NCBI GenBank assembly: GCA_041494705.1
Contig: JBGQBI010000006.1
Coordinates: forward strand, 169,559-201,558
Reading direction: 5' to 3'
Origin: Candidatus Methanoperedens sp.
Lineage (GTDB): Archaea; Halobacteriota; Methanosarcinia; Methanosarcinales; Methanoperedenaceae
DNA length: 32,000 bases
Below are positions 2,045 to 29,098 of the stretch, piece by piece (positions within the stretch are counted from its first letter, which is position 1; every line of letters starts with the position of its first letter). The position numbers and the translations under genes are program-made. The notes beneath the pieces were generated by a model that searched no databases, was not told the DNA's origin, and saw nothing but the letters and a program-made list of their open reading frames with translations.

Positions 2045-2052
2045 GGTAAAAT

Positions 2053-2526: not shown

Positions 2527-2528
2527 TT

Positions 2529-3704: not shown

Positions 3705-3772
3705 CATCGCCCGTGATAGTAGCATTTAAGTTTCTTAAAACTAAGGATTAATGGGCAGGGAATTGATATACT

Positions 3773-4948: not shown

Positions 4949-4962
4949 AGTTTAATCCTCCC

Positions 4963-5835: not shown

Positions 5836-7019
5836 GCCAGGTCCTCCCGCAGGTCTGCGAATTCGCTTTCTACGAAAATCCCCTTCTCTACCAACATTGC
5901 TTTTTTGATGATTTTCTTAATCGTACTCATAGGAATATCGCGCCCTCCGTGCCCCAGCATGAAACCGATAACAGGAACCTTGGTATCAGTATTATGAAGA
6001 CATGCCTTGACCTCTGTGCACAGGGCGCCTTCGTTCTTGCCGATAGATATATTCTTATCAAGGGTCACAACGACTTTTGCGTTTTTCAAAGCCGCACGAA
6101 TTGCGTCAGCCGGGAAAGGCCGGAATGACCTGACTTTGAGAAGCCCCACTGATTCACCTTCACGGCGAAGCTCATCTATTGTATCTTTTATTGTACCGAT
6201 AACCGAACCCATCGCCATAATTACAATCTCGGCATCATCAAGCGCATAGCCATCGATAAGACCGCCGTAGTATCGCCCGTATATATCTTTGAATTCATTT
6301 GCGATATCTTCGATTTTCTTTAAAGCCACGCCCATGGCTTTTTCCTGCTTGTACCTGAATTCGGTGTACGTGCTCGGGTCGGCAAAAGCCCCGAATGACA
6401 TGGGATTCTTGGGGTCAAGCATGAACTCAGGAGAATAAGAAGGCAGGTATTCGTCTGTCAGGCCCTGCTCAAGCAAAATAACGGGTTCATAAACATGGGA
6501 AAGGATGAACCCGTCCATACACCCCATCGAAGGCAAAAGAACCTCTGGGTCTTCTGAGAGCTTGAAGAGCTGCGGTATCATATCCGCCGATTCCTGGACA
6601 TCTTCTGCATAAAGTTGTATCCAGCCGGTATCCCTCTGCGATATTGAGTCCTGCTGGTCGTTCCAGATATTGATGGGTGCGCTTAACGCCCTGTTAACTA
6701 CGGTCATAACGATGGGAAACCTCATTCCGGACGCATTGAATAATGCCTCATGCATCAGCGCAAGCCCCTGCGATGTCGTTGAGGAATATGTGCGCGCGCC
6801 CGCGGCGCTTGCCCCTATCAGCGCTGAGATTGCAGAGAACTCCGATTCCACGTTCATGTACTCGCAGTTCATCTCGCCGTCGGCAACGAATTGTGCCAGG
6901 TCTTCAACGATATGCGTTTGCGGGGTTATCGGATAAGCTGAAATCACATTGGGCTTGCATACCTTGACAGCATGCGCTACTGCATACGAACCTTCAACAA
7001 CAACCATATTTTTCCTCAT
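5832..7019 (-). CDS. porA: 2-oxoacid (probably pyruvate):ferredoxin oxidoreductase, alpha subunit
   Basis: Family similarity ([11 protein letters not shown]...YPITPQT). The start was set at ATG 7019, which forms an ATGA overlap with the porD stop and follows a GGAGGG Shine-Dalgarno. The track start at 7058 would sit inside porD. Confidence 0.9.
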
Positions 7020-7276
7020 TTTCCCTCCAGCACCATTTTTATTGCTTTCTTGGGGCATTCGTTTGCGCAGATGCCGCAGCCTTTGCAGTATTCATAATCC
7101 GGTTCATAGAACCCATTCTCCAGTTTGTACACTACCCCTTCGGGGCAATATATTGCGCAGATGCCGCATTTGCTGCACAGCTTATGGTCAAAAACCGGCA
7201 TGAACGAACGCCATGCTCCCGTCTTATTCGCCCGCGTGCTTCCCGGCTTGGTAACTGTTTTTATTACAAGTTTCAT
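7016..7276 (-). CDS. porD: 2-oxoacid:ferredoxin oxidoreductase, delta subunit (2x[4Fe-4S] ferredoxin)
   Basis: 86 aa with two CxxCxxCxxxCP motifs ([24 protein letters not shown]). It lies between the gamma and alpha subunits. Confidence 0.9.
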
Positions 7277-7818
7277 CGCTGTTCCTCCATGAGGTCATAA
7301 GCAGCCTGGATAGCGGCGGCGTTCTTTTCTCCAACTTTTCCCGGGAACCGCTCCATCACTGCATTTTTTATAGATTCGGGATTTATGAGACCCGAAACTC
7401 CTGCGAATGCTCCCGCAAGGATGGTATTGACAATAGGTTTTCCGATGATATCCATTGCCAGTTTTGTAGCGTCAAGCGTTTTTACCTGGGCTTTGGTATT
7501 GAGAATGAAAGACGAGGGGCTTTTTTCAGTGTTAATAAGAATAAAACCTTCAGGTTTAGCCCCGGCTGCAACGTTTACAACATCTACGAGCGTGGCGTCC
7601 TGCACTATGACATAATCGGGTTCGTATATCTGGCTGCGCAGCCGAATCGGTTTATCGTTCAGGCGCACAAAAGCCGTTACGGGCGCGCCACGCCTTTCCA
7701 CGCCAAAAGCGGGAAAAGCCTGGCTGTATTTCCCGTCTTCAAAAGCAGCCACTGCTAAAAGTTCGGCAGCGGTCACGGATCCCTGCCCGCCACGACCATG
7801 TATTCTTATTTCCTTCAT
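7273..7818 (-). CDS. porC: 2-oxoacid:ferredoxin oxidoreductase, gamma subunit
   Basis: [13 protein letters not shown] is a typical gamma-subunit N-terminus. It overlaps porD by 4 nt. The start was set at ATG 7818; the track start at 7869 adds 17 non-homologous residues. Confidence 0.9.
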
Positions 7819-7905
7819 TTTTTTTCTCCGAGAATAACAAATTAATATATTTTTCTTTTTAATAATCAATCGTGATGAATGCCTTCCACAATTGCATAAA
7901 GGTAT

Positions 7906-8670
7906 TTATTCTTTACGGAGTGGGGCAATAACCAGTAGTATCAGAATCCCCAGAACAAGAACAAAAAGGCCAAGCAAACCGGCCTCAGGACCTACAAGAC
8001 CGCCTGTAATTTCCGGCTTCGCTGCGGTCAACCCGAAAATCCCGAAACCACCCCTTAATGAAAATATATGATACTGGAAAAAATTCCATGAAAAATGATA
8101 TGCTGATGACATCTTAAGTCCGTCTATTAGATACAGGAGAGCAAGAATAATCCCGGCAGCAGTTATTGTCACAAACATGATTACTGCATTGAATTTCCCC
8201 AATCCCAGAAGCAATATGGAAGGGATGTGAAGCATTGCAAACAGGAGGGATGTTGCGATCACGGCATCACGCCGCCCCATGCTTTTTATAAGGTTGGGCA
8301 GGATGTATCCGCGAAAAGACGTCTCTTCCCCTATTGATACGAGCAGTTCAAAAATCACGGCTCCCGCTAATATGTAAATTGCATCCCCGGACATCTCTTC
8401 GATTTTGATCCACCCAAAAACAAGTTCAATAACAAATATCGATGAGATAAGAATAAGAGCAAATACAAAGCCGAATTTCCATGATACTCCCCACCTGAAG
8501 CCACCTTCTTTTTTTTTCAATAAATATGCAATAAGTATAATTATCGAATATGCAACCAGGGCTGCACTGAGCGCAAAGAAATACATGGATACGAGGACAA
8601 CTAACGTTAAAACCGCATAAAATATAATACTTTTAGTAATTCCATTTTTCCTATCCGTTTTGGAATCCAT
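7906..8670 (-). CDS. CPBP-family (CAAX/Abi-type) intramembrane glutamic metalloprotease
   Basis: 254 aa and polytopic. Motif 1 is EETSFRGY (EExxxR). Motif 2 is FAMLH (FxxxH). Confidence 0.85.
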   Translation of the reverse strand: MDSKTDRKNGITKSIIFYAVLTLVVLVSMYFFALSAALVAYSIIILIAYLLKKKEGGFRWGVSWKFGFVFALILISSIFVIELVFGWIKIEEMSGDAIYILAGAVIFELLVSIGEETSFRGYILPNLIKSMGRRDAVIATSLLFAMLHIPSILLLGLGKFNAVIMFVTITAAGIILALLYLIDGLKMSSAYHFSWNFFQYHIFSLRGGFGIFGLTAAKPEITGGLVGPEAGLLGLFVLVLGILILLVIAPLRKE

Positions 8671-8740
8671 CCTTCTAATCCTTACTGAACCAATTCTTTT
8701 TATTAATATTAAAGTTTATTCTTGATATTATTATTATTAT

Positions 8741-8778
8741 GAATTTGGAATTTGAGTAAACTTTGAGTAAACTATATC
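8741..8778 (+). promoter_or_regulatory. Putative promoter with nested tandem repeats upstream of the AAA ATPase gene
   Basis: GAATTTG x2 (8741-8754) is followed by TTTGAGTAAAC x2 (8751-8761, 8762-8772). A TATA-like TATATC (8773-8778) lies about 20-25 nt before ATG 8797, which would give a leaderless or near-leaderless mRNA. Confidence 0.35.
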
Positions 8779-8796
8779 TTGTTTAATAACCCAATT

Positions 8797-10080
8797 ATGA
8801 AGTTTAATATGACGGATGATAAACTCCTAATAACAGAACTTGTGCTTACCGCGCACCTGTATAACCAGTCGGATAAGCTCGGCGTTGACGACCTCCCCCA
8901 GAAAATACGAAAACATTACTGGGACGAAAAGGAAAAAACCGTGAAACGCCCCATCTATGTGACTGAAGGCGATGTAAAAACAATTTATGGCCTTGAGAAT
9001 GTAAAAAACAGCACAAAAGCGCTTCCTTTCCTTGAATTCGAAGAGTTCGGGTCACAAATAAAACTCACTGTTTTCGACCTTGCGACAAAGTGGCTTGCAA
9101 AGCAGCCTGAGGCTGTTGAAAACATCAACAAGAACCCGGTACTTGCCTCCTTTTTTGAAAACTATGATTCACTTCCCGTGAGCTTTGCAAAGGCGAAAGC
9201 GTCCAACATGCCAAAAGAGAGCGGCAGGGAATGGATACTATCCCTGGTTAAAAGCATAGAATCCGAAAAGGGCTCGGAGGAGATGCTAAAACTTGCCCAT
9301 ATCGTGGCCCCGGAAGATATAAAGCAGAATATTAAGGACCTCGTCCTCACAAAAGCACAGGAGGACGAGATAGAGAAAATGACAAAAGCCATCCAGTACC
9401 GCGATTACCTGAAGCGGATAGGACTTCGGGAAATAGGAAAACTTTTGTTCGTCGGGCCTCCGGGAACAGGGAAAACCTCGGTTGCGCGCGCTCTTTCAGG
9501 AAGGCTTGGAATCCCGATAGTGGAAGTAAAACTCTCGCAGATTGCTGACCAGTATCTTGGCGAGACGGCAAAGAACATCGACCGGGTTTTTGAACTTGCA
9601 AGACGCCTGAGCCCGTGCATACTTTTCATCGATGAATTCGATTTCGTGGCAAAAGCCAGGGCTACGGATGAGCACGCCGCATTAAAAAGGGCTGTGAACA
9701 CGCTTTTGAAGGCTATAGATGAGATAAGTCTGGTTGAGGATGGGGTGCTTCTTATCGGAGCAACGAACCATCCCGCAATACTTGACCATGCGGCATGGAG
9801 GCGGTTTGATGAGATAGTGGAATTCGCGCTCCCGGATAAGGATATGAGGAAAAAGATACTTGATATCGTGCTCAGGGAAATAGAGGGAACGTTCAATACT
9901 GAAGAGATTGCGGAAAAGACAGAAGGATACTCGGGTTCCGACCTGCGGTTAATCGTCCGGGAAGCTGTGCTTAATGGTCTTATAACCGAAAGAACAGTCC
10001 TTGGTCAGCCGGATTTACTGCGGGGAATTACAGAATTCAATAAAAGGATTCATTTGAAGGCACTGGATGAAAAAACATGA
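8797..10080 (+). CDS. AAA-family ATPase (classic clade) with uncharacterised ~200-aa N-terminal domain
   Basis: Walker A is GPPGTGKT. Walker B is ILFIDEFD. The second region of homology is ATNHPAILDHAAWRRFD. The start is probably ATG 8797 (or 8809); the track start at 8779 is a TTG lying in the putative TATA box. Confidence 0.85.
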   Translation: MKFNMTDDKLLITELVLTAHLYNQSDKLGVDDLPQKIRKHYWDEKEKTVKRPIYVTEGDVKTIYGLENVKNSTKALPFLEFEEFGSQIKLTVFDLATKWLAKQPEAVENINKNPVLASFFENYDSLPVSFAKAKASNMPKESGREWILSLVKSIESEKGSEEMLKLAHIVAPEDIKQNIKDLVLTKAQEDEIEKMTKAIQYRDYLKRIGLREIGKLLFVGPPGTGKTSVARALSGRLGIPIVEVKLSQIADQYLGETAKNIDRVFELARRLSPCILFIDEFDFVAKARATDEHAALKRAVNTLLKAIDEISLVEDGVLLIGATNHPAILDHAAWRRFDEIVEFALPDKDMRKKILDIVLREIEGTFNTEEIAEKTEGYSGSDLRLIVREAVLNGLITERTVLGQPDLLRGITEFNKRIHLKALDEKT

Positions 10081-14459: not shown

Positions 14460-14461
14460 TT

Positions 14462-14479
14462 ACTTTTTTATATTTTTTG
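14462..14479 (+). terminator. Oligo-T terminator after DUF460 gene
   Basis: acttttttatattttttg contains two T6 runs directly after the stop at 14459. Confidence 0.4.
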
Positions 14480-14556
14480 GCATTCTGAAAGGATAAGTTT
14501 AAGTATTTTGCTGATATGGGGGGAATAATAATAGGTTGATGATAGGAGTACTTCAT

Positions 14557-15519
14557 ATGCGATTTAAAAACGTTTCAAGGATTACAGGAATATTTTTTGT
14601 GCTGGTAACGTTATCCATACTGCAGTTGTTTGTTCAGCCTGCGACAGCGGCAGCGCCAAATTTGCCCAACAACTCTTGTGCAGATTGCCATCGCAGATTG
14701 CTTTTTAGTACAGAAGAACAGAGACAATTTATCGATATACGTATCAAGCATCTTGAAAGCGGCATTTCATGCTCCATAGTGTGCCATGAGGATAAACTAA
14801 ACAAGACCACTGCCAGTACCTATGCTTTGTGGTCTATATCCACGCATGCCCTTTTTGATGTAACATGCGAAAAATGCCATGGCGGCAACGCATCTGCAGT
14901 ATCAAAGCAGGAAGCACATGTGGGTTTATCAAATATCAGCATCGCACGTGCCAATACACCAGAAACATGCGGAAAATGCCATCAGGCCGAACTTGGAGAA
15001 TTCAAGAGCTCAAAACATTTTATGAAATTAGAATCGGGTGAAGAAGGGCCTGCCCCGGCATGCATCACATGCCACCAGGCGCACAGCGTGCGTGTCCTGA
15101 CGGCTTCTGAAATTGAGGATTTCTGCAGTAATTGCCATAATAATATAACAGGCATCGACCCGACCGTACCTAAAAAAGCAGAAAACGCATTATCTTCTGT
15201 TGGTGAATTGCGGGTTGAAATTTCAAAAGCCAGAAGCGCAATAAATACTGCAAAAGCAAAAAAATTGGATGTGACCCAGGCAGAAGTAAATCTGGATTCG
15301 GCAATGACAATCCTCAAAGATACCCCCTCGGTGTGGCACAGGTTTAATTTGACCTTTTTTGATACTGAAGTCCAAAAAGGCATCGCAGAAGCACAAAAAG
15401 CTACGAATGCAACGTCAAATGCTCAGGCAACTCCAGCAACTACGAAAGCACCCGGATTTGGGGCAGCCCTTTTTGTAATTGGGCTGTTTGTTGCATATTT
15501 CCTGAAAAGGTCTAGGTGA
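14557..15519 (+). CDS. Hexahaem c-type cytochrome with signal peptide and PGF-CTERM anchor (paralogue 1)
   Basis: It has five CxxCH motifs (CADCH, CEKCH, CGKCH, CITCH, CSNCH) and one CxxxCH (CSIVCH). The signal peptide ends ..QPATA/AAP. The C-terminus is PGFGAALFVIGLFVAYFLKRSR. An AGGAG Shine-Dalgarno lies about 10 nt before ATG 14557; the track start at 14536 is a TTG upstream. Confidence 0.9.
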   Translation: MRFKNVSRITGIFFVLVTLSILQLFVQPATAAAPNLPNNSCADCHRRLLFSTEEQRQFIDIRIKHLESGISCSIVCHEDKLNKTTASTYALWSISTHALFDVTCEKCHGGNASAVSKQEAHVGLSNISIARANTPETCGKCHQAELGEFKSSKHFMKLESGEEGPAPACITCHQAHSVRVLTASEIEDFCSNCHNNITGIDPTVPKKAENALSSVGELRVEISKARSAINTAKAKKLDVTQAEVNLDSAMTILKDTPSVWHRFNLTFFDTEVQKGIAEAQKATNATSNAQATPATTKAPGFGAALFVIGLFVAYFLKRSR

Positions 15520-15550
15520 ATCAAGGTGAAACTGACATAAGGAGGCAGAA

Positions 15551-16477
15551 ATGAACTTCAAAAAACCATATTTATTCGTTATTACACTTTTATTAGCTAT
15601 TATATTCGTACCTCTGGCTTTAGCAGATAATTCATGTTTAAATTGTCATGAAAAACTTTCTGCGTTTAATGAGACAGAACAACAATTCAATGAAATAAGA
15701 TTACAGCATCTGGGGCGGGACATACCATGTTCTCTTCAATGCCATACCGCAACCCTCAATAATTTTGCTCAAAGTAATTATTTACAGTGGACAAAATCCA
15801 AACATGCGCTGTTCAATGTCACATGTAATAATTGTCATGGAGGCAATCCGGATTCAGATATAAAAGAAACGGCGCATATCGGGATTTTAAGGTCTTCTGA
15901 TCCCAACAGCACTGTTTTTTACAGGAATGTGCCTGAAACATGCGGAAAATGTCATACTAATGAATTAACCCAGTTCAAGAATTCTGCGCATTATCAGAAA
16001 TTGAAAGCACTTCAGCAGGCTCCCACGTGTGATACCTGCCACAAACCGCATGAGTTCAAGATTCTGAATATAAGCGAATTCCACAATCTTTGCAGCCAGT
16101 GCCATAATATCGATATGAGAATTGCCCCATCGGATGCTCCCGATAGAGCTATCACCGCGCTTCAGAATGCAGATAAATTGACGAATGAGATAAAACTGGC
16201 CTATAATGATATACAGCAGGCAAAACAGAAAGGGATAGACGTATCGGCTGCACAGAACGATCTTAACGGCGCGATTTCAATCAGAGACGGCCTTCCGGTA
16301 CTCTGGCATGCATTTGACCTGCCATCATTCGGAAATGTAATCGATAGCGGAATAGCGGCTGCGCAGAAAGCACAGCAGGAATCCGGGGCGCCTGTGTCCA
16401 AACCAACTCCGGGATTTGGCATGATTGCCTCGATGACAGGAATTATTGCAATATACCTGCTCCTGCGCAGAAAGTGA
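15551..16477 (+). CDS. Hexahaem c-type cytochrome with signal peptide and PGF-CTERM anchor (paralogue 2)
   Basis: Its motif order matches paralogue 1: CLNCH, CSLQCH (CxxxCH), CNNCH, CGKCH, CDTCH, CSQCH. The C-terminus is PGFGMIASMTGIIAIYLLLRRK. An AGGAGG Shine-Dalgarno is present. Confidence 0.9.
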   Translation: MNFKKPYLFVITLLLAIIFVPLALADNSCLNCHEKLSAFNETEQQFNEIRLQHLGRDIPCSLQCHTATLNNFAQSNYLQWTKSKHALFNVTCNNCHGGNPDSDIKETAHIGILRSSDPNSTVFYRNVPETCGKCHTNELTQFKNSAHYQKLKALQQAPTCDTCHKPHEFKILNISEFHNLCSQCHNIDMRIAPSDAPDRAITALQNADKLTNEIKLAYNDIQQAKQKGIDVSAAQNDLNGAISIRDGLPVLWHAFDLPSFGNVIDSGIAAAQKAQQESGAPVSKPTPGFGMIASMTGIIAIYLLLRRK

Positions 16478-16490
16478 ATGAGGTGTATAT

Positions 16491-16835
16491 ATGAATAACA
16501 AACAATTGCAAATCTTTTTTTTGCTTGCGATAGTGCTCCTGTCGTATCTGCCATCCTTAACATCCGCAAGGCCTGAGTATGCGGTAAAAGAAAGCCGGAA
16601 TTGCCCGTATTGCCATTCACGGGACGGCCCTCCGCAGCTCAGTGAAGTTGGTATTTATTACGGAACACATAACCATTCATTCGTGGGTTATGTACCCTCT
16701 CCCAAAGCTACACCCACCCCCGAACCTACGAAAGAAATCGAGATAGGAATCCACATGAATACCTGGGATGTAGGTCTGAGCGCGATGGCCATTATTTTGC
16801 TGATATTGATTGTGGTTTACATTATACGGTTGTGA
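16491..16835 (+). CDS. Monohaem c-type cytochrome, signal peptide + C-terminal TM anchor
   Basis: 114 aa with a signal peptide (..LPSLTSA/RP), a single CPYCH motif, a TP-rich linker and a C-terminal hydrophobic helix. A GAGGTG Shine-Dalgarno is present. Confidence 0.75.
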   Translation: MNNKQLQIFFLLAIVLLSYLPSLTSARPEYAVKESRNCPYCHSRDGPPQLSEVGIYYGTHNHSFVGYVPSPKATPTPEPTKEIEIGIHMNTWDVGLSAMAIILLILIVVYIIRL

Positions 16836-16841
16836 GATAAT

Positions 16842-17117
16842 ATGCATATAGAGAAAATTGAATACGGACCGGAAAAAACAGGTATCTGGTCGCAGATAGC
16901 ATTTATTTTAATAATTTTACTGACACTCGCTGCTGCGGGAATTACAGGTGATATGGTCTGGAAGATTATATCCAGTGAACCTTCGGCGGCCTCGACGGAA
17001 TCATTCATAGCTGGGGTTGGAAAGCTGATGGCGTACCTCCTTTTCATCCTTGCAGCCATTTTGTATCTCTACGTAAAGGGATTGCTGCAGGATGAATACA
17101 TTACAACTCTGGAGTGA
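16842..17117 (+). CDS. Small membrane protein (two predicted TM helices), unknown function
   Basis: 91-aa ORF wedged 6 nt after the monohaem gene and 4 nt before the Rieske start. It has two ~20-residue hydrophobic stretches. No family was recognised. Confidence 0.5.
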   Translation: MHIEKIEYGPEKTGIWSQIAFILIILLTLAAAGITGDMVWKIISSEPSAASTESFIAGVGKLMAYLLFILAAILYLYVKGLLQDEYITTLE

Positions 17118-17121
17118 AAAC

Positions 17122-17616
17122 ATGGACGATAAAATCACTATTACCTTAACACGAAGGAAGCTCACAGAAATATTAATCGGTCTTGTTGCATTATTTTTCG
17201 CCTCGGGTGCGGTGGCGGCGGTATTGAAATACCTCTGGCCGCAAACCGAAGCAAAGGGTGAATCCGTAGAAGTAAGAATAGCAACGGTTGATGAAGTCCC
17301 GACAGGAAGTGCAAAAAATTTTGTTTTCAATGGCAAGGCTGCCGTCCTCCTGCACATGCCCGCCGGCTTTCGGGCATTCGGACGCGTATGCACTCACCTT
17401 GGCTGCATCGCCTCCTGGAAATCTGATGAGACTGTGATATATTGCCCCTGCCACATAGGGAAATACGACCCGAATACTGGTGCTGTAATCTCAGGACCAC
17501 CCCCATCTCCTTTACCAATGATAGATATTTCAGTAAAGGATGGCGCGGTTTACGCTCTCAACTGGAAAGATCCAAACTATGTGAAATCCATATCGTTCTA
17601 TGCGGGGGCGGCCTGA
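17122..17616 (+). CDS. Rieske [2Fe-2S] protein
   Basis: Box I is CTHLGC and box II is CPCHIGKYD. The N-terminal TRRKL plus hydrophobic helix resembles a Tat signal-anchor. GGAG lies 7 nt before ATG 17122; the track start at 17092 overlaps the previous ORF. Confidence 0.9.
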   Translation: MDDKITITLTRRKLTEILIGLVALFFASGAVAAVLKYLWPQTEAKGESVEVRIATVDEVPTGSAKNFVFNGKAAVLLHMPAGFRAFGRVCTHLGCIASWKSDETVIYCPCHIGKYDPNTGAVISGPPPSPLPMIDISVKDGAVYALNWKDPNYVKSISFYAGAA

Positions 17617-18279
17617 ATGTCATTCCTCGATAAGATCTACAAATGGCTCGATGACAGGTTCAAATTAAGAGACCTGCTGCCCCCCATAGTCAAGCATCCT
17701 GCGCCTGAAGATGTTATATCCAATCCACTTTATTGCCTTGGAGGGACAGCATTCCTGTGTTTCATAATTCTTGTTATTACGGGAATATTCCTGGCAATGT
17801 ACTACAAGCCCACTCCTGGAGAGGCATATAAGAGCGTCCAGACTATAATGACAACTGTCCCGATGGGTTCGCTTGTGAGAAGCGTGCATCACTGGGCTGC
17901 AAATACAATGATAGCGGCCGTGATGCTTCACATGATAAGGATTTATTTCATGGGCGCTTATAAGAAGCCCCGCGAATTGAACTGGGTGGTGGGAATATTC
18001 CTGCTCCTGACGGTTACCACCTTCGGTTTTTCAGGCTATCTTCTCCCGTGGGACCAGCTTTCTTTCTGGGCGACCAAGATCGGAACTGGCATAGCAGGCT
18101 CAATGCCGATAATAGGCGGGTATATCTCGTTAATCCTGATGGGAGGGAACGATATCGGCGCCGAGACGCTGACAAGGTTTTTTGCCATACATGTATTGAT
18201 TCTTCCCATGGCAATTGCAGGTCTACTGGGGATGCATTTCCTGATGGTCCGGATACAGGGAATTTCAGGGAGGCTCTAA
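17617..18279 (+). CDS. Cytochrome b, N-terminal (b6-type) subunit
   Basis: 220 aa. It has two His pairs for haems bL/bH (SVHHW..13..MLHM and FAIHV..13..GMHF). The b6-type YCLGG motif is present. The start codon abuts the Rieske stop. Confidence 0.92.
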   Translation: MSFLDKIYKWLDDRFKLRDLLPPIVKHPAPEDVISNPLYCLGGTAFLCFIILVITGIFLAMYYKPTPGEAYKSVQTIMTTVPMGSLVRSVHHWAANTMIAAVMLHMIRIYFMGAYKKPRELNWVVGIFLLLTVTTFGFSGYLLPWDQLSFWATKIGTGIAGSMPIIGGYISLILMGGNDIGAETLTRFFAIHVLILPMAIAGLLGMHFLMVRIQGISGRL

Positions 18280-18280
18280 T

Positions 18281-18742
18281 ATGACTTTGATTGAAGTTGA
18301 AAAACATGAAGTGGAAGAACCGAAATCAGAACCTGTGCGTGTGCGCGGGCTTCCGTTTTTCCCGCATTTCTTACTTCGTGAAGTGGTTGTAATGTGCCTT
18401 ATTGCAGGAAGCCTCATATTACTGGCATCGTATTACCCGGCAAGCCTGCTTAAGCCGGCTGACCCCTTTGATACCCCAACACCGATATACCCTGAATGGT
18501 ATTTCCTTTATGTCTTCGGTTTCCTGAAATTCTGGACATGGAATATCGGACCGATACCTGCAAAAATCATAGGCGTAACTCTGCCGATGATTCTCTGGTA
18601 TGGTCTTCTGATACTGGTGCCATTTATTGACAGGAACCCCTCATCTGATATAAGGAGAAGAAAACTTGCGGTTGCACTCGGGATTATAGCCCTGATTGGC
18701 GTACTGTATTTCACATACTACGGCATAGTTCACGGAGAATGA
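18281..18742 (+). CDS. Cytochrome b C-terminal domain protein (subunit IV / PetD-like)
   Basis: 153 aa with the Qo-site PEWYFLY motif and three hydrophobic helices. A GGGAGG Shine-Dalgarno is present. Confidence 0.88.
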   Translation: MTLIEVEKHEVEEPKSEPVRVRGLPFFPHFLLREVVVMCLIAGSLILLASYYPASLLKPADPFDTPTPIYPEWYFLYVFGFLKFWTWNIGPIPAKIIGVTLPMILWYGLLILVPFIDRNPSSDIRRRKLAVALGIIALIGVLYFTYYGIVHGE

Positions 18743-18918
18743 AACTTTCAAAGTCGGAATATGAACGCATAGATGCAGTATCCAAAATACTGGGACTGAT
18801 ACTGCTGGCGTTCAGCATAGATAATGCATCAAAGGGCAATTATTATATTGCCCTTGCTCTTTTTGGCATAGGCGGGATAATAAGTATCGTGCCCGTGTTT
18901 ATTAAGGTTGAGACTTGA
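18739..18918 (+). CDS. Untracked 59-codon hydrophobic ORF, candidate small subunit of the Rieske/cyt b complex
   Basis: My translation is MKLSKSEYERIDAVSKILGLILLAFSIDNASKGNYYIALALFGIGGIISIVPVFIKVET. Its ATG overlaps the subunit-IV stop as ATGA (18739-18742). It has one to two hydrophobic helices and is below the 60-aa cutoff of the ORF track. Confidence 0.45.
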   Translation: MKLSKSEYERIDAVSKILGLILLAFSIDNASKGNYYIALALFGIGGIISIVPVFIKVET

Positions 18919-19150
18919 GTTTGAGAATCGTTTTTAATTCAGCCTCGTTTACTTTGTAAGTGAAGGTTTTTTCGCCGTCTATTTCTATTACTGGTATCAG
19001 ATACTTGTATTTTTCAAATATCTCTTTGTCTTTTTCGATATCCACTTCCATTAACGAGAATGGAAATTCTTTCCGGATTTTTATAAGGGCTTCTTTGGCG
19101 ATGTCACACAAGTGGCAGTTTTTTTTGGAGTAAATCGTTATATTGACCAT
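18902..19150 (-). CDS. Glutaredoxin-like small thioredoxin-fold protein (DUF836-like)
   Basis: 82 aa. The N-terminal beta-strand plus redox motif reads ITIYSKKNCHLCD, with the typical ..IPVIEIDGE.. later in the sequence. Confidence 0.75.
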   Translation of the reverse strand: MVNITIYSKKNCHLCDIAKEALIKIRKEFPFSLMEVDIEKDKEIFEKYKYLIPVIEIDGEKTFTYKVNEAELKTILKLKSQP

Positions 19151-22347: not shown

Positions 22348-24621
22348 TTATCCGGTTTTGGATTTCGTACCCATTATCAGGATAATCCCGAAGGCAAAGA
22401 GTATGATGCCTGCCCATGCAAAATTAACCGCCGGGATGATTTTCAGCGTAAGGGGGATATAACCGCCGCTCTCGCCCTGGAAAATAACATATACATCCGT
22501 ACCTGTGATGCTTCTGTCAACCATCGGGAACGTCCCGCTGCCACCATTTCCCGAAAGGTATTCGGCTACACCGCTGCCAATCATTCGCTGGTTCTGGTAA
22601 ACTTCAAGTTTGACATCCTGAACGTTATACCTGTTCGATGTATCAAGACTATCACTATTGACTGCACTCAGCACTGGCTGCGCAAAACCGGTCATGATAT
22701 TACCGGTCACGGTCAGCCCGGCGCCGATTGTTTCTGTGATATTTCCGGGGAATACGGCCAACATGCTTCCTGAATTATCGGTCAGTTCCACAAGCGTGCC
22801 GTGTCCCTCCAGTGAACTTATATTTGTTATTTGCCCGCTTATTTTTACACTTGTCCCTTCAAATGCCGACGGGTTGTTCAAGATATCGGCAATTGGAGTC
22901 CCTGGGTAGGACTGTGTGTTTCCGGTCAGGCTGCTCGTCGACAGGTCAATAAACTTTACACCATAGCCATTCCCGATGTCGACCAATTCTCCTTTTGCAG
23001 TAAGCGGAATATTAATATTGTCTTTCGTGGATGTGAAACTGGAACTGATAATCGCGCCAAAAAGTATGAACACCACTCCAAAGTGTACTGCCGCTATGCC
23101 GATGCCTTTTATCCTGGGGCGGAGGCTTGTGATGCGCAGGTATTCCTGAAGCCGGTTTACTATTGCCCATGCCGCATAAATAAGTGATGGGAAGATGGAA
23201 ATGACCGAGATGGAACCTATCAGTTTATAGAGGGTGGGCTCACGTACAAAGAAGGGGCTTGTGTGGTCAAGAACATAGAAATTCGATGTTCGGAGAAACA
23301 TTGTTATTACCGAGAGCGCGGCAACCGCAGCAAGGTTTTGTATCTGGGTTTTTTTATCGGATTCCTTATAGTTCAAGCAGAACCCGAGCGCAAGCAGTAA
23401 TATGATGGTGAAAGGATAGCTCCATATATTAAAAAAGTTCTTGGTGTCGGAGGCTACGTTCACTTTAAGCCCCTGTGTCAATTGGATAAATACCGGGAAA
23501 GTGATACCCCAGAAAGAGATGAAAGCCAGGATAACGAATAAGAGGAGAGTTATATAGAAGATATTTGTTTTGTTCCAGAGCCCTTTATCCTCTTCAACCG
23601 TTTCAGTCTCTTCAAAGTATCGCCGCAGGCCAAGAACAAGGGAAATCACTGCGGCTATCAGGATAGATATGATTAGTAATGTGCCTGTGGAAGTCTCCCC
23701 GAAGGCATGGACAGAATTGAAAAGCCCGCTTCGAACAACGATGGCGGCGTATAGTACCAGAATGAACGAAACCGCAGCAAGCATCGGTGCTGCTATCGAG
23801 AAGGTTGTTTTATTCTTCCTGTGAAGAGATGCAGCATGTAGATAACCCGTGAGTGTAAGCCAGGGTATGAATGATGCAGTCTCGACAGGGTCCCATGCCC
23901 AGAACCCGCCCCAGCCCAATACCAGGTATGCCCAGACGCCGCCCACAGCTATGCCCATACCAAGGAATAACCAGGTAAATCGCGCCCACTGCCTGCCCAG
24001 TTCTTCCCAGCCTTCATCCTTTGTAAGCAGGTACACTATGGCAGTAGCAAAGGGTATTGTCATTGCTGCATAACCTATGAACATAAGAGGCGGATGGATG
24101 GTCATCCAGAAATTCACAAGCAGCGCGTTAAGACCGCTGCCGTCCGGGGGTACAAAACCCGCGGGGACATTTGATAATTCATAAATGGACTTAAATGGGG
24201 TCTGGATAAGCGTAAGCACTGTAAAATATATTCCTACTGCAAGAGTTATTATTTGCGTCCTTCTTGCCAGGGCAGTTGCATGCTTTGTGGTTTGTGCAAG
24301 CCATGCTGCCGAGATGAATATCACCCATACCCACAGAAGGTATGTGCCGGGTTGTCCCGCCCATGTCCCGGCTATTTTATAAATCAGCGGGAGGTCGCGG
24401 CTTGAGTACTGCCAGACGTATTCATAGGTAAAGTCGCTCACCACGAAATAATAGGTGATAAGGAGATAAGCGAAAGTCAAAAGCCCGGCTGTCAGGAATA
24501 TCAAGGGCGAGACGAATCTATTCAGGATATCGATATTTTTCTCTTTAAATATTAGCCCGATAAGCGCAACAGCGCTTACGAGAATGCTTAAATAAAGTAT
24601 TGAATCACCGAAAGTTATCAT
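22348..24621 (-). CDS. ccmF: Cytochrome c-type biogenesis protein CcmF (System I haem lyase)
   Basis: 757 aa and polytopic. The WWD signature is WGGFWAWDPVE. A large extracytoplasmic domain precedes the last TM helix, as in CcmF/NrfE. Confidence 0.9.
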   Translation of the reverse strand: MITFGDSILYLSILVSAVALIGLIFKEKNIDILNRFVSPLIFLTAGLLTFAYLLITYYFVVSDFTYEYVWQYSSRDLPLIYKIAGTWAGQPGTYLLWVWVIFISAAWLAQTTKHATALARRTQIITLAVGIYFTVLTLIQTPFKSIYELSNVPAGFVPPDGSGLNALLVNFWMTIHPPLMFIGYAAMTIPFATAIVYLLTKDEGWEELGRQWARFTWLFLGMGIAVGGVWAYLVLGWGGFWAWDPVETASFIPWLTLTGYLHAASLHRKNKTTFSIAAPMLAAVSFILVLYAAIVVRSGLFNSVHAFGETSTGTLLIISILIAAVISLVLGLRRYFEETETVEEDKGLWNKTNIFYITLLLFVILAFISFWGITFPVFIQLTQGLKVNVASDTKNFFNIWSYPFTIILLLALGFCLNYKESDKKTQIQNLAAVAALSVITMFLRTSNFYVLDHTSPFFVREPTLYKLIGSISVISIFPSLIYAAWAIVNRLQEYLRITSLRPRIKGIGIAAVHFGVVFILFGAIISSSFTSTKDNINIPLTAKGELVDIGNGYGVKFIDLSTSSLTGNTQSYPGTPIADILNNPSAFEGTSVKISGQITNISSLEGHGTLVELTDNSGSMLAVFPGNITETIGAGLTVTGNIMTGFAQPVLSAVNSDSLDTSNRYNVQDVKLEVYQNQRMIGSGVAEYLSGNGGSGTFPMVDRSITGTDVYVIFQGESGGYIPLTLKIIPAVNFAWAGIILFAFGIILIMGTKSKTG

Positions 24622-24622
24622 T

Positions 24623-25105
24623 TTATTTGCTCCTGACCGTATCTCTTACCTGGGTCACTATTGGCATTAAATAGTCTGGGCCCACCGCTCCCGGAACCCT
24701 CTGGAGCACATTGCCGTTCGGATCCATGAAAATCAAATAAGGCGGGTAGCCGACACCGTACCTGCTTGAAACATCCCTGTCAACATCAAGGTCCATTGCC
24801 ACGAGAACATAATCATTCTCCAGTATTTGTTTCACCTGTGGATTCCCGAGAGTATCGGTCTGGAATTTTGCGCAGTACTGGCACCATATTGCCCAGAAAT
24901 ACACCATGACCGGTTTTTTTTCCTGCTGTGCTATCTGGAATCCTTTTTCAAGACCGGAATCCGAGCGATAGAATTTGATACCGCCGAGATATGAATTATT
25001 TTTATCTGACAGCGTGAATTTTGAAAGAGCGATATTGTAAGAGCCATAAGCGAAGGAGATTATCAATATTAATACAAGGATTGTCAGAAGTTTCTTGGTT
25101 TTCAT
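24623..25105 (-). CDS. Membrane-anchored thioredoxin-fold protein (WCQYC), Trx paralogue 2
   Basis: 160 aa with an N-terminal signal-anchor helix and the redox motif YFWAIWCQYCAKF. It is paralogous to the ORF at 28640-29098. Its stop lies 1 nt before the ccmF start. Confidence 0.8.
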   Translation of the reverse strand: MKTKKLLTILVLILIISFAYGSYNIALSKFTLSDKNNSYLGGIKFYRSDSGLEKGFQIAQQEKKPVMVYFWAIWCQYCAKFQTDTLGNPQVKQILENDYVLVAMDLDVDRDVSSRYGVGYPPYLIFMDPNGNVLQRVPGAVGPDYLMPIVTQVRDTVRSK

Positions 25106-25206
25106 ATTTGGTTCCTGATTGACTGGAATTGGATATAAGGTGTGTGGTTTTAATCGATGTTTTTTGCTTATTTTTGATTTAATTCATTTTCTTATGCATG
25201 TATATA

Positions 25207-25240
25207 CTTTACGATATGTGTAAAGCGGGTTATAATATAA
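25207..25240 (-). promoter_or_regulatory. TATA box + CTTTAC-N7-GTAAAG palindrome (site 2)
   Basis: The minus-strand read is TTATATTA-TAACCCG-CTTTAC-ACATATC-GTAAAG. It lies about 100 nt upstream of the Trx2 start, and the TATA abuts the stop of the upstream gene. Confidence 0.4.
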
Positions 25241-25242
25241 AT

Positions 25243-26631
25243 TCATACGATAGGCAGCGTCAATATCCTTACTCCGATGCCCAGATAAACAACTGCAACA
25301 ATACTCACGGCGAGCATGCCCTGTTTCAGCTCATGTTCACTATTTGATACCTTTTTGCTGATAAGATACCCTGCCCATATGGTAAATATGAAACCGGCAC
25401 TTAATAATGCTATTTGCATATGGTCAATGGCATCAAAATCTACTGCGAATTCCCATACTTTACCGAAGAGCTGCCCTATGACGCCAGCAATGAAAAACAG
25501 CCCTTTTAATAAACGGAATGTGTTTTCAGCCAGATAAACGGACAGGCTTAAAGGAAGGAATGCGTAGGACAGCTCGATAAATTTTTGTTTTGTATTCTTT
25601 CCTGAAAAGGACATTTTTGCAGAGAGATGCATCAGGCCTGCCGCGCCCAGTGTTATCGCCGCGAATATAATGATTGCCCACATATTTCTCCAGTAAAGGT
25701 CAAGGAAAGTGATTGAATTGTAAGGAAGTGTGGATTTGACAAAATTGATAATCATATTCCTGAATTGCAGCCGTTCCATTCCCAGTACAAAGAGGAAGAT
25801 AACGATAATGCCATGAACCAGGTATGCCTCGTCAAGATGTGTTTTTTTCATATTGACTACATCGGCGCCGGGAAGCCTCGGGCTTATGCGGATATTGTCT
25901 TTTGAACATGATTTGACGCATTCCATGCACATGATACACTGGTTATTGCGTTCCATGGTCTGCGGGGATTCGCCGACTGGGCAGGCTTTACCGGCTTCGT
26001 TACCGATGACGCATTCCTTGATATCATGGTCCTGGCAGGTTTTTTTCGACTTGCAGCGAAGTTCTGTTGCAGAGAGCATGGAGAATAAACCGAGCACAAG
26101 CCCGATAGGACAGATATAACGGCAAAAACTTCGTTTTTCATAAATGAATCCCATCAATATAGCAAGACCGGTGAAGAATAAAAGCAGGTATGCGGTGTTC
26201 GGCGGATTCCTCGTAAACATGAAAAGATGCCGCTCAGCAGCGAAAATGAACAGGAAGAATATAACCGCTATCCAGAGATTGCGGTACTTTTCAGGATATT
26301 TCTTTTTAACACTATAGACAGATTGCGTCCAGTCGCCGACTGCTCCTATGGGACAGGCAAAACACCAGAGCCTTCCAAAAATGATGAGCGTAAAAACAAG
26401 TAGTGGATGCCAGATATCCCATATCATGGTTGTTGCAAACGGTATCCCGCCGCGGAAACGCAGGTCGGGTTCGCTTGACAGCCCGAAATAAATAATTATC
26501 AAGAGCGCTATGAAAAAAATTACATTGACAGCAGGCCTGAAGAACCTATTTTTTACAAGATTCCTGAAAAAATAGACATCAAGCAAATCGGATTTTTCTG
26601 CATTATCGTTATTTTCATTGTTTTTATCCAT
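25243..26631 (-). CDS. Polytopic membrane Fe-S protein of the NapH/NosR/CcoG(FixG) type
   Basis: 462 aa. It has two membrane-edge CX3CP motifs (WCFACPIG, FCRYICPIG) and a central Cys-rich soluble segment including CIMCMECVKSC (CxxCxxCxxxC). About 10 hydrophobic helices are present. Confidence 0.8.
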   Translation of the reverse strand: MDKNNENNDNAEKSDLLDVYFFRNLVKNRFFRPAVNVIFFIALLIIIYFGLSSEPDLRFRGGIPFATTMIWDIWHPLLVFTLIIFGRLWCFACPIGAVGDWTQSVYSVKKKYPEKYRNLWIAVIFFLFIFAAERHLFMFTRNPPNTAYLLLFFTGLAILMGFIYEKRSFCRYICPIGLVLGLFSMLSATELRCKSKKTCQDHDIKECVIGNEAGKACPVGESPQTMERNNQCIMCMECVKSCSKDNIRISPRLPGADVVNMKKTHLDEAYLVHGIIVIFLFVLGMERLQFRNMIINFVKSTLPYNSITFLDLYWRNMWAIIIFAAITLGAAGLMHLSAKMSFSGKNTKQKFIELSYAFLPLSLSVYLAENTFRLLKGLFFIAGVIGQLFGKVWEFAVDFDAIDHMQIALLSAGFIFTIWAGYLISKKVSNSEHELKQGMLAVSIVAVVYLGIGVRILTLPIV

Positions 26632-26637
26632 GTTTCC

Positions 26638-27363
26638 TCAAATCAACGCCGGAAAATAAGGCAGCAATTTTGCCTGGAGATATTTATCAATCCCGAAGAG
26701 CATCATCAATCCGAGAAGTATTAAAATCAGGCCTGAGAGCCTCTTAAAGAAATGCCCTCTTTTCACAAACCAGCTTACCCTGCCCGAAATGCTCTTGCCC
26801 GAATATGCTATGGCAAGCATCGGAAGGCTGACGCCAAGTGAATATGCTATCAGCAGGAAAGTACCATGCAGGAGATTGCCTGTGCTTGCGGTACTTTCAG
26901 CCACATAAGCAAACACCGCGCCGAGAATCGGGCCCACGCACGGTATCCAGAGAATTCCAAGGGACATGCCCAGGAAGAAACCGCCTGTTATTCCTTCCCT
27001 TGGCGCGATTGAAGAGATTTTCCCGAAAAATGATACATGCGCACGGGCAAAGTTAACAATAGAACTTGAAAAATTCACGAATGCATTGTTAATATCATCA
27101 TCAAATAATACGGCTCCCATTCCGATAATGAAAAATATCGAGAACCAGCGAAGGTATTCTGCAAAAAATGAAAAAGAAGTGAGCGCAGAAACAAGTAGTC
27201 CCATAAGCGTGAAGGTTATGGACATGCCAGTGACTATGGCAACGGGACGAAGACGGCTGCCCACAGAACCCGAAAGCACTGCGGGCAGGATGGGAAGAAC
27301 ACATGGCGTTATCACTGTCGCCATGCCTGCTAAGAAAACCAGGAATACCGATGGTGCTGGCAT
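26638..27363 (-). CDS. ccdA: CcdA/DsbD-family transmembrane thiol-disulfide electron transporter
   Basis: 241 aa with the two conserved membrane Cys contexts VITPCVLPILP and WIPCVGPILGA. Confidence 0.88.
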   Translation of the reverse strand: MPAPSVFLVFLAGMATVITPCVLPILPAVLSGSVGSRLRPVAIVTGMSITFTLMGLLVSALTSFSFFAEYLRWFSIFFIIGMGAVLFDDDINNAFVNFSSSIVNFARAHVSFFGKISSIAPREGITGGFFLGMSLGILWIPCVGPILGAVFAYVAESTASTGNLLHGTFLLIAYSLGVSLPMLAIAYSGKSISGRVSWFVKRGHFFKRLSGLILILLGLMMLFGIDKYLQAKLLPYFPALI

Positions 27364-28626
27364 TTATGTTCTGGCTTCTGCGTCTATATTGTCGTTGTCC
27401 GCCTGGATTGTTGTCAGATCGCCTGTCTCCTTTATAATCAATATATTGCCTTTCATTTGGGGATTATACGTCTTAAAACCAGCGGAAATTGATTTATTGT
27501 CTGTTATATTGAACGCCTTGACAAGCTCAACCTTGCCGGAAACCGGGGTCATGCTCATATAATTTATATCAGAAAACTTGTGTGGCTCAGTTATTACACG
27601 CGCATAAGCGGCGCCCTGGTAATCAACTGCATCAAGCAGCGGTTTATAGGTAGAATATGATGTGGTCATGCCATGCGGGTCTTTTATCAATTTCAATACG
27701 TTATCCACGTTCTGGGTGTGCCCGTAAATAAGCGGTCTTGTATATATGATGTTTTCATATCCTTGTTCAGCATGCGCCTTCAGTGTTTCATCTTTTGTGC
27801 TGTCATAACCCAGGTCATGCAATTCGATCCAAGAAGTAGGGCTGTAATCTGCGCTGTACATGCCGATTATCGTTTTGCCGTAGAACGAATCAGGCTCTAC
27901 GTAAGTCTCTAAATACTTCGCCTCCAGCTCTGTTCCGGCAATCATTTTGGTATTGATGAAATAAGCACTGTTGACGCCTGCCGGTGTAAGGTTCAGGCCA
28001 TCTGCAAGTGATTTGAAATTGGAAGGCAGGCTGTATTTTGAAAGGTCAAGCACAGCTGGCGTTGGGGCAACGGTTGGTATTCCAGCCGCTTTGGGTGAGA
28101 GTATGGGTATATAACCATCTCTTACAGGAAGCGTGTTTGTATTCTGACCCGGGTATTTGGTGCCGTATTCCTGGTCTATAAGCGCCCGTGCTTCCGTTAG
28201 CGTCTTGCCCTGTGTAAGGTAATCCTGGACTTTTATGGCCTCTCCGACACATGTATCACAGAATGAGGCATGTTCATCGTATGTCCAGTCATCGTGAATG
28301 AAACAGTCTCGCAGGAACCTGTGACCCGAATGCCCGCCGCAACCGCAGTAGCATGGTATTTGTTCAAGCAGGTCAGGATGTTCGGTGGCATACGTGTATG
28401 CTTTAAGTGTCAGGGGGTTTGTATAAACGTAACTTGGGAATTTTATTTGATTAGCAGATGTTTTCGTGGATGTGGAACTGCTGGTTGTACCTGAAAAGAG
28501 AGCATACGCTGCCCCGGCAAGTAAGATTACAGCTACAACTCCAATGATCAACGTACTATTTCCTTTATTTTTCTGGATTTTTTCATCCTTTGCTTTCACA
28601 GTTTTTGCTTTTTTTTCGGGCTTCAT
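27364..28626 (-). CDS. Membrane-anchored PCYCGC-domain protein with uncharacterised ~230-aa C-terminal domain
   Basis: It has an N-terminal TM helix and an S/T-rich linker. The domain sequence is AYTYATEHPDLLEQIPCYCGCGGHSGHRFLRDCF....DEHASFCDTC....LTQGKTLTEARALIDQEYG (PCYCGC family pattern). The start was chosen at ATG 28626, 7 nt after a GAGG; the track start at 28650 is a TTG overlapping the upstream gene. Confidence 0.75.
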   Translation of the reverse strand: MKPEKKAKTVKAKDEKIQKNKGNSTLIIGVVAVILLAGAAYALFSGTTSSSTSTKTSANQIKFPSYVYTNPLTLKAYTYATEHPDLLEQIPCYCGCGGHSGHRFLRDCFIHDDWTYDEHASFCDTCVGEAIKVQDYLTQGKTLTEARALIDQEYGTKYPGQNTNTLPVRDGYIPILSPKAAGIPTVAPTPAVLDLSKYSLPSNFKSLADGLNLTPAGVNSAYFINTKMIAGTELEAKYLETYVEPDSFYGKTIIGMYSADYSPTSWIELHDLGYDSTKDETLKAHAEQGYENIIYTRPLIYGHTQNVDNVLKLIKDPHGMTTSYSTYKPLLDAVDYQGAAYARVITEPHKFSDINYMSMTPVSGKVELVKAFNITDNKSISAGFKTYNPQMKGNILIIKETGDLTTIQADNDNIDAEART

Positions 28627-28639
28627 TTTCATGCCTCTT

Positions 28640-29098
28640 TTATGTTGCAATTTTATTTATTGTGTTAAGAAACGTTTCAGTATCCGTATATCCGGGTATC
28701 CTTTTTATCTCGGTGCCGTTTGAATCAAGAAATATCTCTGTGGGTGTGCCGTGTACCCTGAAATTCCTGGTTTCGTTTTTCTGGTTGTACACATCTATTG
28801 AAACCAATATGAAGTTTCCGTTTAATGTCTTTATTACGCTCTGGTTTGTGAAGGTTTCTTCTTCAAATTTCTTGCACCATCCGCATGATTCAGACCTTGC
28901 ATAAACAAATACCGGCTTGCCCTGTGCTTTTGCAGCGCCCAGCGCTATGGAAGGGTCGGTATAGAATTTCACACCTTGAAGAGTTAATTTTTCTGAGTCA
29001 GGGTTATTTGGTGAAGTACCTGCGTTACTCGCCTGGGAAGTCAAGCAACCTGAGATAATCACAAGCAGGGCAAGTAATATGAATATCGATTTCTTCAA
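28640..29098 (-). CDS. Thioredoxin-fold lipoprotein (CGWC), Trx paralogue 1
   Basis: 152 aa with a signal peptide and lipobox (VIISGC) and the redox motif SESCGWCKKF. It appears to start at a TTG; no in-frame ATG would preserve the signal peptide. Confidence 0.8.
   Translation of the reverse strand: MKKSIFILLALLVIISGCLTSQASNAGTSPNNPDSEKLTLQGVKFYTDPSIALGAAKAQGKPVFVYARSESCGWCKKFEEETFTNQSVIKTLNGNFILVSIDVYNQKNETRNFRVHGTPTEIFLDSNGTEIKRIPGYTDTETFLNTINKIAT

Follow-up and report, generated by a model that had tools for sequence, protein, structure and literature searches.

The window analysed here, a 32,000-nt stretch of contig JBGQBI010000006.1 from Candidatus Methanoperedens sp., carries on its + strand, at positions 14557-18918, an eight-gene operon that very probably encodes the menaquinol:cytochrome c oxidoreductase of Methanoperedens, a split b6-type Rieske/cytochrome b complex. 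The cluster is real, correctly read and already known. A preliminary description of the same DNA had proposed that a b6-type Rieske/cytochrome b module is joined here to a monohaem and two multihaem cytochromes in an archaeon. This functional reading is supported by the evidence below, the archaeon being an anaerobic methanotroph of the ANME-2d group. From 5′ to 3′, the genes are:

14557..15519, + strand, multihaem cytochrome c (MHC1), 320 aa
15551..16477, + strand, multihaem cytochrome c paralogous to MHC1 (MHC2), 308 aa
16491..16835, + strand, monohaem cytochrome c, 114 aa
16842..17117, + strand, membrane protein with two transmembrane (TM) helices by hydropathy (2-TM protein), 91 aa
17122..17616, + strand, Rieske 2Fe-2S protein (PF00355), 164 aa
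17617..18279, + strand, cytochrome b6-type subunit (PF00033), four TM helices, 220 aa
18281..18742, + strand, subunit IV-like protein (PF00032), three TM helices, 153 aa
18739..18918, + strand, hydrophobic protein whose gene overlaps the subunit IV stop codon by 4 nt, 59 aa

The eight co-directional genes, their order and their gaps, as first described, were reproduced exactly by an open reading frame (ORF) listing and by a separate script, with intergenic spacings from 5′ to 3′ of 31, 13, 6, 4, 0, 1 and -4 nt. This close spacing, together with the 4-nt overlap, suggests co-translation. Alignments of orthologues favour the ATG starts at 14557 (MHC1) and 17122 (Rieske) over the longer alternatives at 14536 and 17092.

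The predicted quinol-oxidising core

Cytochrome b is split between two adjacent genes 1 nt apart, which encode a four-helix b6 and a three-helix subunit IV. The b6-type subunit (PF00033, E 3e-53) can be aligned over its whole length with the b6 of cyanobacteria and chloroplasts, its best match in the PDB having an E-value of 1e-65. Its four haem-ligand histidines, H91/H105 (Hx13H) and H192/H207 (Hx14H, the b6-type spacing), align to H86/H100 and H187/H202 of b6 and are invariant in 36 sequences. Also invariant is the CxGG motif (Y39-C40-L41-G42-G43), with YCLGG aligned to the Cys35 region of b6, and C40 is thus probably the attachment site of a covalent haem cn/ci, whose occupancy we infer from the motif. 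This motif is present in cyanobacterial and firmicute short cytochromes b and absent from haloarchaeal short ones (Dibrova et al. 2017, PMC5600118). Among the loci that we fetched, it is kept in the nearest relatives of the Methanoperedens cytochrome b and lost in the long versions from anammox bacteria and from the Planctomycetes-Verrucomicrobia-Chlamydiae (PVC) group.

The quinol-site residues are likewise retained. Subunit IV (PF00032, E 2.5e-13) carries the quinol-oxidising (Qo) site motif PEWY at residues 71-74 in 36/36 sequences, so the missing quinol-site residues that the preliminary description named as a refuting result were not observed. The Rieske protein (PF00355, E 4e-11) has a twin-arginine motif (T10-R11-R12), one TM helix and the two cluster-binding boxes CTHLGC (90-95) and CPCH (108-111), including the disulfide cysteines; the twin arginines and both boxes are invariant in 36 sequences. 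Its best PDB matches are Rieske proteins of the b6f and menaquinol types (E 3e-18). The motifs named in the preliminary description (CTHLGC/CPCH, PEWY and four conserved histidines in cytochrome b) were therefore all found, together with a CPYCH motif in the monohaem cytochrome. In the copy of the PDB that we searched, neither cytochrome b nor the Rieske or multihaem proteins have a close homologue; there is no solved structure of an orthologue, and a literature search turned up no cryo-EM paper.

Conservation across Methanoperedenaceae and relatives

We scanned one genome per GTDB species and found 35 Methanoperedenaceae loci with a cytochrome b orthologue, at 77-99% identity to the subunit in the window, the next best identity being 52%. 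The eight-gene order is kept in 33 of these 35 loci, and in the other two the contig ends inside the cluster. Composition and order are identical in locus L001 (Candidatus M. nitroreducens) and in loci L009-L043. For each of the eight genes the ratio of non-synonymous to synonymous substitution (dN/dS) lies between 0.06 and 0.19, as expected under purifying selection, and every cofactor-binding residue (the b-haem histidines, C40, the Rieske boxes, CPYCH and a CX3CH site in the multihaem cytochromes) is invariant in the 36 sequences. Proteins of Candidatus Methanoperedens metagenome-assembled genomes (MAGs) share 99% identity with the cytochrome b, and the Ca. M. nitroreducens protein shares 86%. 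Among public contigs the closest is JAPZAN010000090.1, from a vernal-pool-soil Methanoperedens MAG (cytochrome b 99%, MHC1 88%). The cluster is also present in the MAGs FeB_1, Fe_173 and MnB_21 from iron- and manganese-reducing enrichments. At positions 5956-6215 of locus L009 (JAPZAN010000090.1) the monohaem gene matches in two parts that lie in different frames, which probably reflects a frameshift in the assembly and not a pseudogene.

The core of monohaem, 2-TM protein, Rieske, b6 and subunit IV is retained in more distant relatives. Locus L003 has a single multihaem gene, and in locus L004 unrelated multihaem genes lie on the other strand. Taken together with the PVC loci described below, this pattern marks the core as the stable unit and its multihaem partners as exchangeable over longer evolutionary distances.

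In L003 (cytochrome b 74%; 1718-5258 and 5892-9243) the one-multihaem version of the cluster is accompanied, 3 kb upstream, by a further member of the hexahaem family (4 CXXCH + CX3CH + CX4CH) beside a 4Fe-4S/NrfD quinol module, so that the same cytochrome family partners two different quinol-oxidising modules. In a Methanobacteriota MAG (L044 6650-8063 and L006 247-2905; cytochrome b 52%) a monohaem gene stands directly 5′ of b6 and subunit IV, and in L006 a 401-aa multihaem cytochrome follows the b6/subunit IV module. No Rieske gene was detected in the flanks of these two loci, which may represent a Rieske-less b6/subunit IV module.

Cytochromes c predicted at the outer face of the membrane

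MHC1 and MHC2 align over their full length at 39% identity (E 3e-77) and are, on this alignment, true paralogues; both match multihaem c7/c3 families in Pfam and NCBIfam. MHC1 has a Sec signal peptide, five CXXCH sites and one CX3CH site (CSIVCH), six conserved distal histidines and a helical C-terminal domain. MHC2 likewise has a signal peptide, five CXXCH sites, one CX3CH site (CSLQCH) and a helical C-terminal domain. In a 33-sequence alignment that spans both paralogues, 12 cysteines and 12 histidines are invariant, which corresponds to six attachment sites with six proximal and six distal histidines. This invariance is far beyond what chance would produce across the aligned sequences and makes six bis-histidine haems per protein the most economical reading. 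The twins had been called hexahaem in the preliminary description; six invariant sites are indeed present in each, yet just five of them are canonical CXXCH and the sixth is CX3CH. The term is thus a well-supported prediction, with the haem at the sixth site putative. The invariant CX3CH also explains why one study, counting CXXCH only, described these proteins as pentahaem (Arshad et al. 2015) and another gave them "6 hemes" (Leu et al. 2020).

Both proteins are under purifying selection (dN/dS 0.11 for MHC1 and 0.12 for MHC2). At its C-terminus MHC2 carries a PGF-CTERM signal (PF18204, 21.5 bits against a cutoff of 18.8), and MHC1 ends in a PGF-CTERM-like tail of APGFG, a TM helix and KRSR. 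The P, G and F residues are near-invariant in both. With a PGF motif, a TM helix and a basic tail, each is a predicted substrate of archaeosortase A. An AlphaFold2 model of MHC1, built from the 33-sequence alignment, had a mean predicted local distance difference test (pLDDT) score of 58 and a predicted template modelling (pTM) score of 0.38; confidence was limited to the C-terminal helices, with the haem domain scoring under 50. A Foldseek search of the PDB with this model returned no match at E <= 0.001, and the best hits, octahaem nitrite reductases at E 0.16, are suggestive at most. We also compared multihaem profiles with PDB sequences to find a fold family; the matches, with the Ignicoccus octahaem protein 4qo5 at E 1.7e-5 and with NrfA at E 0.02, were rejected as too weak for assignment.

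The monohaem cytochrome has a signal peptide, a CPYCH site, a Pro/Thr-rich linker, an invariant GxHM..W motif and a C-terminal TM anchor (dN/dS 0.11). It has no match in Pfam or NCBIfam. In agreement with the preliminary description, no operon protein matches the cytochrome c1 or f families in Pfam or NCBIfam, and a profile of the monohaem recovered none from the PDB. The one PDB match of that profile covers 36 residues (E 4e-4) and includes the signal peptide, and we rejected it as evidence of homology. Although the monohaem lacks sequence homology to cytochromes c1 and f, its topology (signal peptide, one haem, C-terminal TM helix) is like theirs, and it is likely a functional stand-in for them.

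The preliminary description had envisaged a chain of at least 13 haems on the cell surface. The count is borne out if all six sites of each multihaem protein are filled and the monohaem is added, but it hinges on the atypical CX3CH site, in proteins reported as pentahaem in 2015. The location, however, needs to be revised: the PGF-CTERM signals of MHC1 and MHC2 and the C-terminal TM helix of the monohaem predict anchoring at the outer face of the cytoplasmic membrane, in the pseudoperiplasm, and neither the multihaem nor the monohaem sequences show any sign of reach beyond the S-layer.

Two small membrane proteins

The two small ORFs have no above-threshold match in our local Pfam and NCBIfam libraries, which could be taken to mean that they are chance reading frames and not genes. 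Their conservation effectively refutes this. The 91-aa 2-TM protein occurs at the same position in all 35 Methanoperedenaceae loci at 62-90% identity (dN/dS 0.10), and the 59-aa protein stands 3′ of subunit IV in all 35 at 55-94% identity (dN/dS 0.19), with synonymous sites near saturation for both (proportion of synonymous differences, pS, ~0.5-0.67). The termini of both proteins are conserved, strongly so in the 2-TM protein (MHIEKIEYGPEK..., ...YVKGLLQDEYITTLE), and relatives of the two proteins carry the family labels DUF7318 and DUF8120. By this measure, both ORFs are real, conserved genes, whose products are presumed to be structural subunits.

The 2-TM protein scores 18.7 bits against DUF7318, under the cutoff of 27, and its homologue in L004 (7254-7508) reaches 27.1 bits; we therefore regard it as distantly DUF7318-like. 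The 59-aa protein has no match in our local copy of Pfam, and its M. nitroreducens orthologue bears the precomputed Pfam label PF26439 (DUF8120). Neither protein matches the PetG, PetL, PetM or PetN families in Pfam or NCBIfam. The L004 homologue of the 2-TM protein also faintly matches the region of three helices at the N-terminus of QcrA from actinobacteria (E 0.008). It is speculation, prompted by this single faint match of a distant homologue, that the 2-TM protein represents split-off extra helices of the Rieske subunit, equivalent to the QcrA N-terminus.

Relation to published work

The same eight genes were listed in M. nitroreducens as MPEBLZ_00816-00823, conserved between strains and expressed at similar levels, and the complex was placed upstream of the nitrate reductase Nar (Arshad et al. 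2015, PMC4683180). Leu et al. (2020, PMC7327174, PMC7082337) catalogued, among five conserved menaquinone:cytochrome c oxidoreductase clusters, a noncanonical bc1/b6f complex that includes two hypothetical proteins and two six-haem multihaem cytochromes, and found its expression to be high in Ca. M. manganicus when methane was oxidised with Mn(IV). It is Group 5 of Zhang et al. (2023, PMC10542353), who measured its expression on nitrate, iron and electrodes; the multihaem orthologues Methanoperedens_01167 and 01168, which adjoin ArgJ as in L001, were most expressed with nitrate. A 2026 review cites the cluster as a Rieske/cytochrome b complex of atypical kind. The earlier statement that the subunit composition is uncharacterised thus overstates the novelty of a cluster whose genes were listed in 2015, catalogued in 2020 and followed by transcriptomics in 2023. 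The window holds one more species' copy of it. What we add is that the eight-gene unit, both small ORFs included, is conserved and under purifying selection, that the CX3CH site is invariant, that the predicted haem-cn cysteine is present, that both multihaem cytochromes carry PGF-CTERM signals and that orthologues lack a solved structure.

Proposed electron path and alternative explanations

In the electron path that we favour, reverse methanogenesis would supply menaquinol, through F420H2 dehydrogenase and the heterodisulfide reductase of the membrane, for oxidation at a Qo site built by cytochrome b6, subunit IV (PEWY) and the 2Fe-2S head of the Rieske protein, predicted to be exported by the twin-arginine route. 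One electron would return to quinone through haems bL and bH and, probably, the covalent haem cn in a Q cycle, with protons released outside. The other would pass from the Rieske cluster to the membrane-anchored monohaem, acting in place of c1 or f, and on to the two putatively lipid-anchored six-haem cytochromes at the outer face of the membrane. From these, electrons could reach pseudoperiplasmic acceptors, either nitrate or nitrite reductase or larger cytochromes serving metal or electrode reduction. For the orthologous cluster this path has already been published as a model (Arshad et al. 2015, PMC4683180; Leu et al. 2020, PMC7327174), and nothing in the operon sequence contradicts it. The complex is regarded as the chief outlet of the menaquinol pool, and as a site of coupling to the proton-motive force, in archaea whose methane oxidation uses nitrate, iron or manganese, and it would thereby bear on how much energy is conserved and by which route electrons reach external acceptors. 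This significance has already been recognised in the literature.

Several points weigh against so complete a picture. The NCBIfam scores of the core all lie under their curated cutoffs (275 bits against 325 for cytochrome b6; the PetC models of b6f, the best for the Rieske protein; and TIGR01156 for subunit IV), which indicates a divergent lineage and not a canonical b6f complex. Docking of the monohaem to the Rieske head is assumed, since the sequence of the monohaem is not detectably homologous to c1, f or any other cytochrome of bc complexes. The poor model of MHC1 and its lack of a significant fold match give no support to a particular haem packing, and the multihaem genes are the variable part of the cluster. 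Attachment of the multihaem cytochromes to the core is putative. Membrane complexes have reportedly been analysed by complexome profiling by Berger and colleagues in 2021, with the Rieske/cytochrome b complex and a possible additional octahaem subunit reportedly detected. Finally, the published expression data single out no one acceptor, being high with nitrate (PMC10542353) and high with Mn(IV) (PMC7327174, PMC7082337).

The hexahaems may instead be co-transcribed, lipid-anchored mobile carriers that serve a stable core of monohaem, 2-TM protein, Rieske, b6 and subunit IV, possibly with the 59-aa protein. The distant relatives fit such an arrangement, since they keep the core and vary the multihaem genes, with one in L003 and, in L004, none in the operon and unrelated ones on the opposite strand. 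The L003 paralogue beside the NrfD/4Fe-4S quinol module also suggests a portable partner, and a PGF-CTERM lipid anchor would permit lateral diffusion. Within Methanoperedenaceae, however, both genes are always present, in fixed order and directly 5′ of the core; their constraint is similar to that of the monohaem, and all eight genes were equally expressed (Arshad et al. 2015). We consider mobile carriers a serious contender, with somewhat less than an even chance of being right. Were the hexahaems fixed subunits, each protomer would hold ~16 haems (bL, bH, cn, one monohaem c and 12 in the multihaem cytochromes) and could be one hub from which menaquinol electrons branch to extracellular cytochromes as well as to nitrate and nitrite reductases, with the 2-TM protein as the equivalent of split QcrA helices and the 59-aa protein as a lineage-specific structural subunit. 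This whole arrangement is tentative and, taken together, rather doubtful. If true, it would be an architecture without solved precedent, the best PDB matches being cyanobacterial b6 for cytochrome b and, for the multihaem proteins, the Ignicoccus octahaem protein noted above.

The complex could also be dedicated to nitrate respiration, feeding a pseudoperiplasmic Nar-type nitrate reductase, and not be a general hub for extracellular electron transfer. Both the peak expression of Methanoperedens_01167 and 01168 with nitrate (Zhang et al. 2023) and the placement of the complex upstream of Nar (Arshad et al. 2015) would fit. Nonetheless, the cluster is found in all 35 species representatives, including those from the iron- and manganese-reducing enrichments, its expression in Ca. 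M. manganicus is high while Mn(IV) is being reduced (Leu et al. 2020), and in the window it is not linked to nar genes. An exclusive role in nitrate respiration appears unlikely. Far less probable still is an unusual mode of operation, such as the reverse or bifurcating electron flow proposed for anammox bacteria or quinone reduction from external donors. Unusual energetics have been proposed for the multihaem Rieske/cytochrome b complexes of anammox bacteria (PMC12954380), and the cytochrome b of Scalindua is ~50% identical to ours. Yet anammox cytochrome b is longer and lacks the CxGG cysteine, no NAD(P)-binding or FeS/flavin subunit was found in the operon by Pfam or NCBIfam, and Methanoperedens physiology calls for net quinol oxidation. 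We thus retain a menaquinol:cytochrome c oxidoreductase as the most probable function of the operon.

Operon limits and genomic neighbourhood

Upstream of MHC1 we read the following features from the sequence:

14460..14556, + strand, leader, 97 nt, A/T-rich, intergenic, 5′ of the operon
14465-14478 (TTTTTATATTTTTT) and ~14499-14510 (TTTAAGTATTTT), + strand, TATA-like stretches in the leader, putative promoter
~7 nt 5′ of the ATG, + strand, GGAG Shine-Dalgarno-like motif in the leader

At the other end, the 59-aa ORF shares 17 nt with a converging gene at 18902-19150 on the - strand, which encodes a glutaredoxin-like protein (PF05768, CxxC), and the operon therefore ends after that ORF. The glutaredoxin-like gene is the immediate downstream neighbour in ~28/35 Methanoperedenaceae loci and is not in that position in M. 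nitroreducens.

The flanking genes (RIO kinase, DUF460, glutaredoxin-like, phosphoglucomutase-family and JAB) are syntenic across many chromosomal Methanoperedens MAG contigs. We considered a Borg or plasmid origin of the window and rejected it because of this synteny and a GC content of ~45% throughout. ArgC-CBS-ArgJ lies at 983-3704, 10.8 kb upstream of the operon, and adjoins the multihaem genes in M. nitroreducens (L001 2159-4830). In the window the intervening genes encode a pyridoxal phosphate (PLP) enzyme, pyruvate:ferredoxin oxidoreductase subunits, a CAAX protease, an AAA ATPase, a metallo-beta-lactamase (MBL) hydrolase, an Ssb-like protein, the RIO kinase and DUF460. On the downstream side, 3.4 kb from the operon, a run of cytochrome c maturation-type genes occupies 22348-28650 on the - strand. 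It comprises a CcmF-like protein (757 aa, PF01578), a thioredoxin-like protein (160 aa), a Fer4_5 protein (462 aa), a DsbD_TM/CcdA-like protein (241 aa) and a PCYCGC-domain protein (428 aa); the CcmF-like gene has an equal relative position in locus L011.

Comparison with known systems

The M. nitroreducens cluster (Arshad et al. 2015; L001) is the orthologous locus, with the same genes in the same order, protein lengths of 319/313/113/91/164/220/154/59 aa against 320/308/114/91/164/220/153/59 aa here, and amino-acid identities of 63-85%. The two differ in their left flank, which is ArgJ in M. nitroreducens and RIO kinase with DUF460 here and in most species, the latter being the commoner left neighbour.

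With the b6f complex of cyanobacteria and chloroplasts the operon shares a split b6 and subunit IV, the Hx13H/Hx14H ligand spacing, the CxGG cysteine, PEWY and a PetC-like Rieske protein. It lacks cytochrome f and PetG/L/M/N, however, and encodes instead a monohaem, two hexahaem cytochromes and unrelated small membrane proteins. Whereas b6f oxidises plastoquinol, the substrate here is presumably menaquinol, judging from published accounts of the cluster. The b6c-type menaquinol complexes of Firmicutes and Heliobacteria are similar in their short cytochrome b with CxGG, separate subunit IV and use of a c-type cytochrome instead of f. Bacillus has this cytochrome c as a fusion with subunit IV and Heliobacteria have a dihaem form, whereas here it is replaced by a separate monohaem and two hexahaems. 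Haloarchaeal short cytochromes b differ from that of Methanoperedens in lacking the haem-cn cysteine.

The clusters of PVC and anammox bacteria have in common with the operon a multihaem cytochrome with a C-terminal membrane anchor, encoded directly 5′ of Rieske and cytochrome b; these are nonahaem in the Verrucomicrobia, Phycisphaerae and Planctomycetota loci L046-L050, L061 and L066. Their cytochrome b, in contrast, is long (380-400 aa), fused to subunit IV and without CxGG, the monohaem, 2-TM and 59-aa genes are absent, and their multihaem cytochromes are 21-31% similar to MHC1 and MHC2, in repeated partial matches. The ExtMNOPQS/Cbc-type systems of Geobacter likewise wire quinol-oxidising b-type modules to multihaem cytochromes, and MHC1 and MHC2 weakly match ExtM and ExtS. 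The cytochrome b reaches 267.3 bits against the NCBIfam equivalog cytb_ExtP, under its cutoff of 290, subunit IV matches ExtQ faintly (E 0.002), and the operon content differs.

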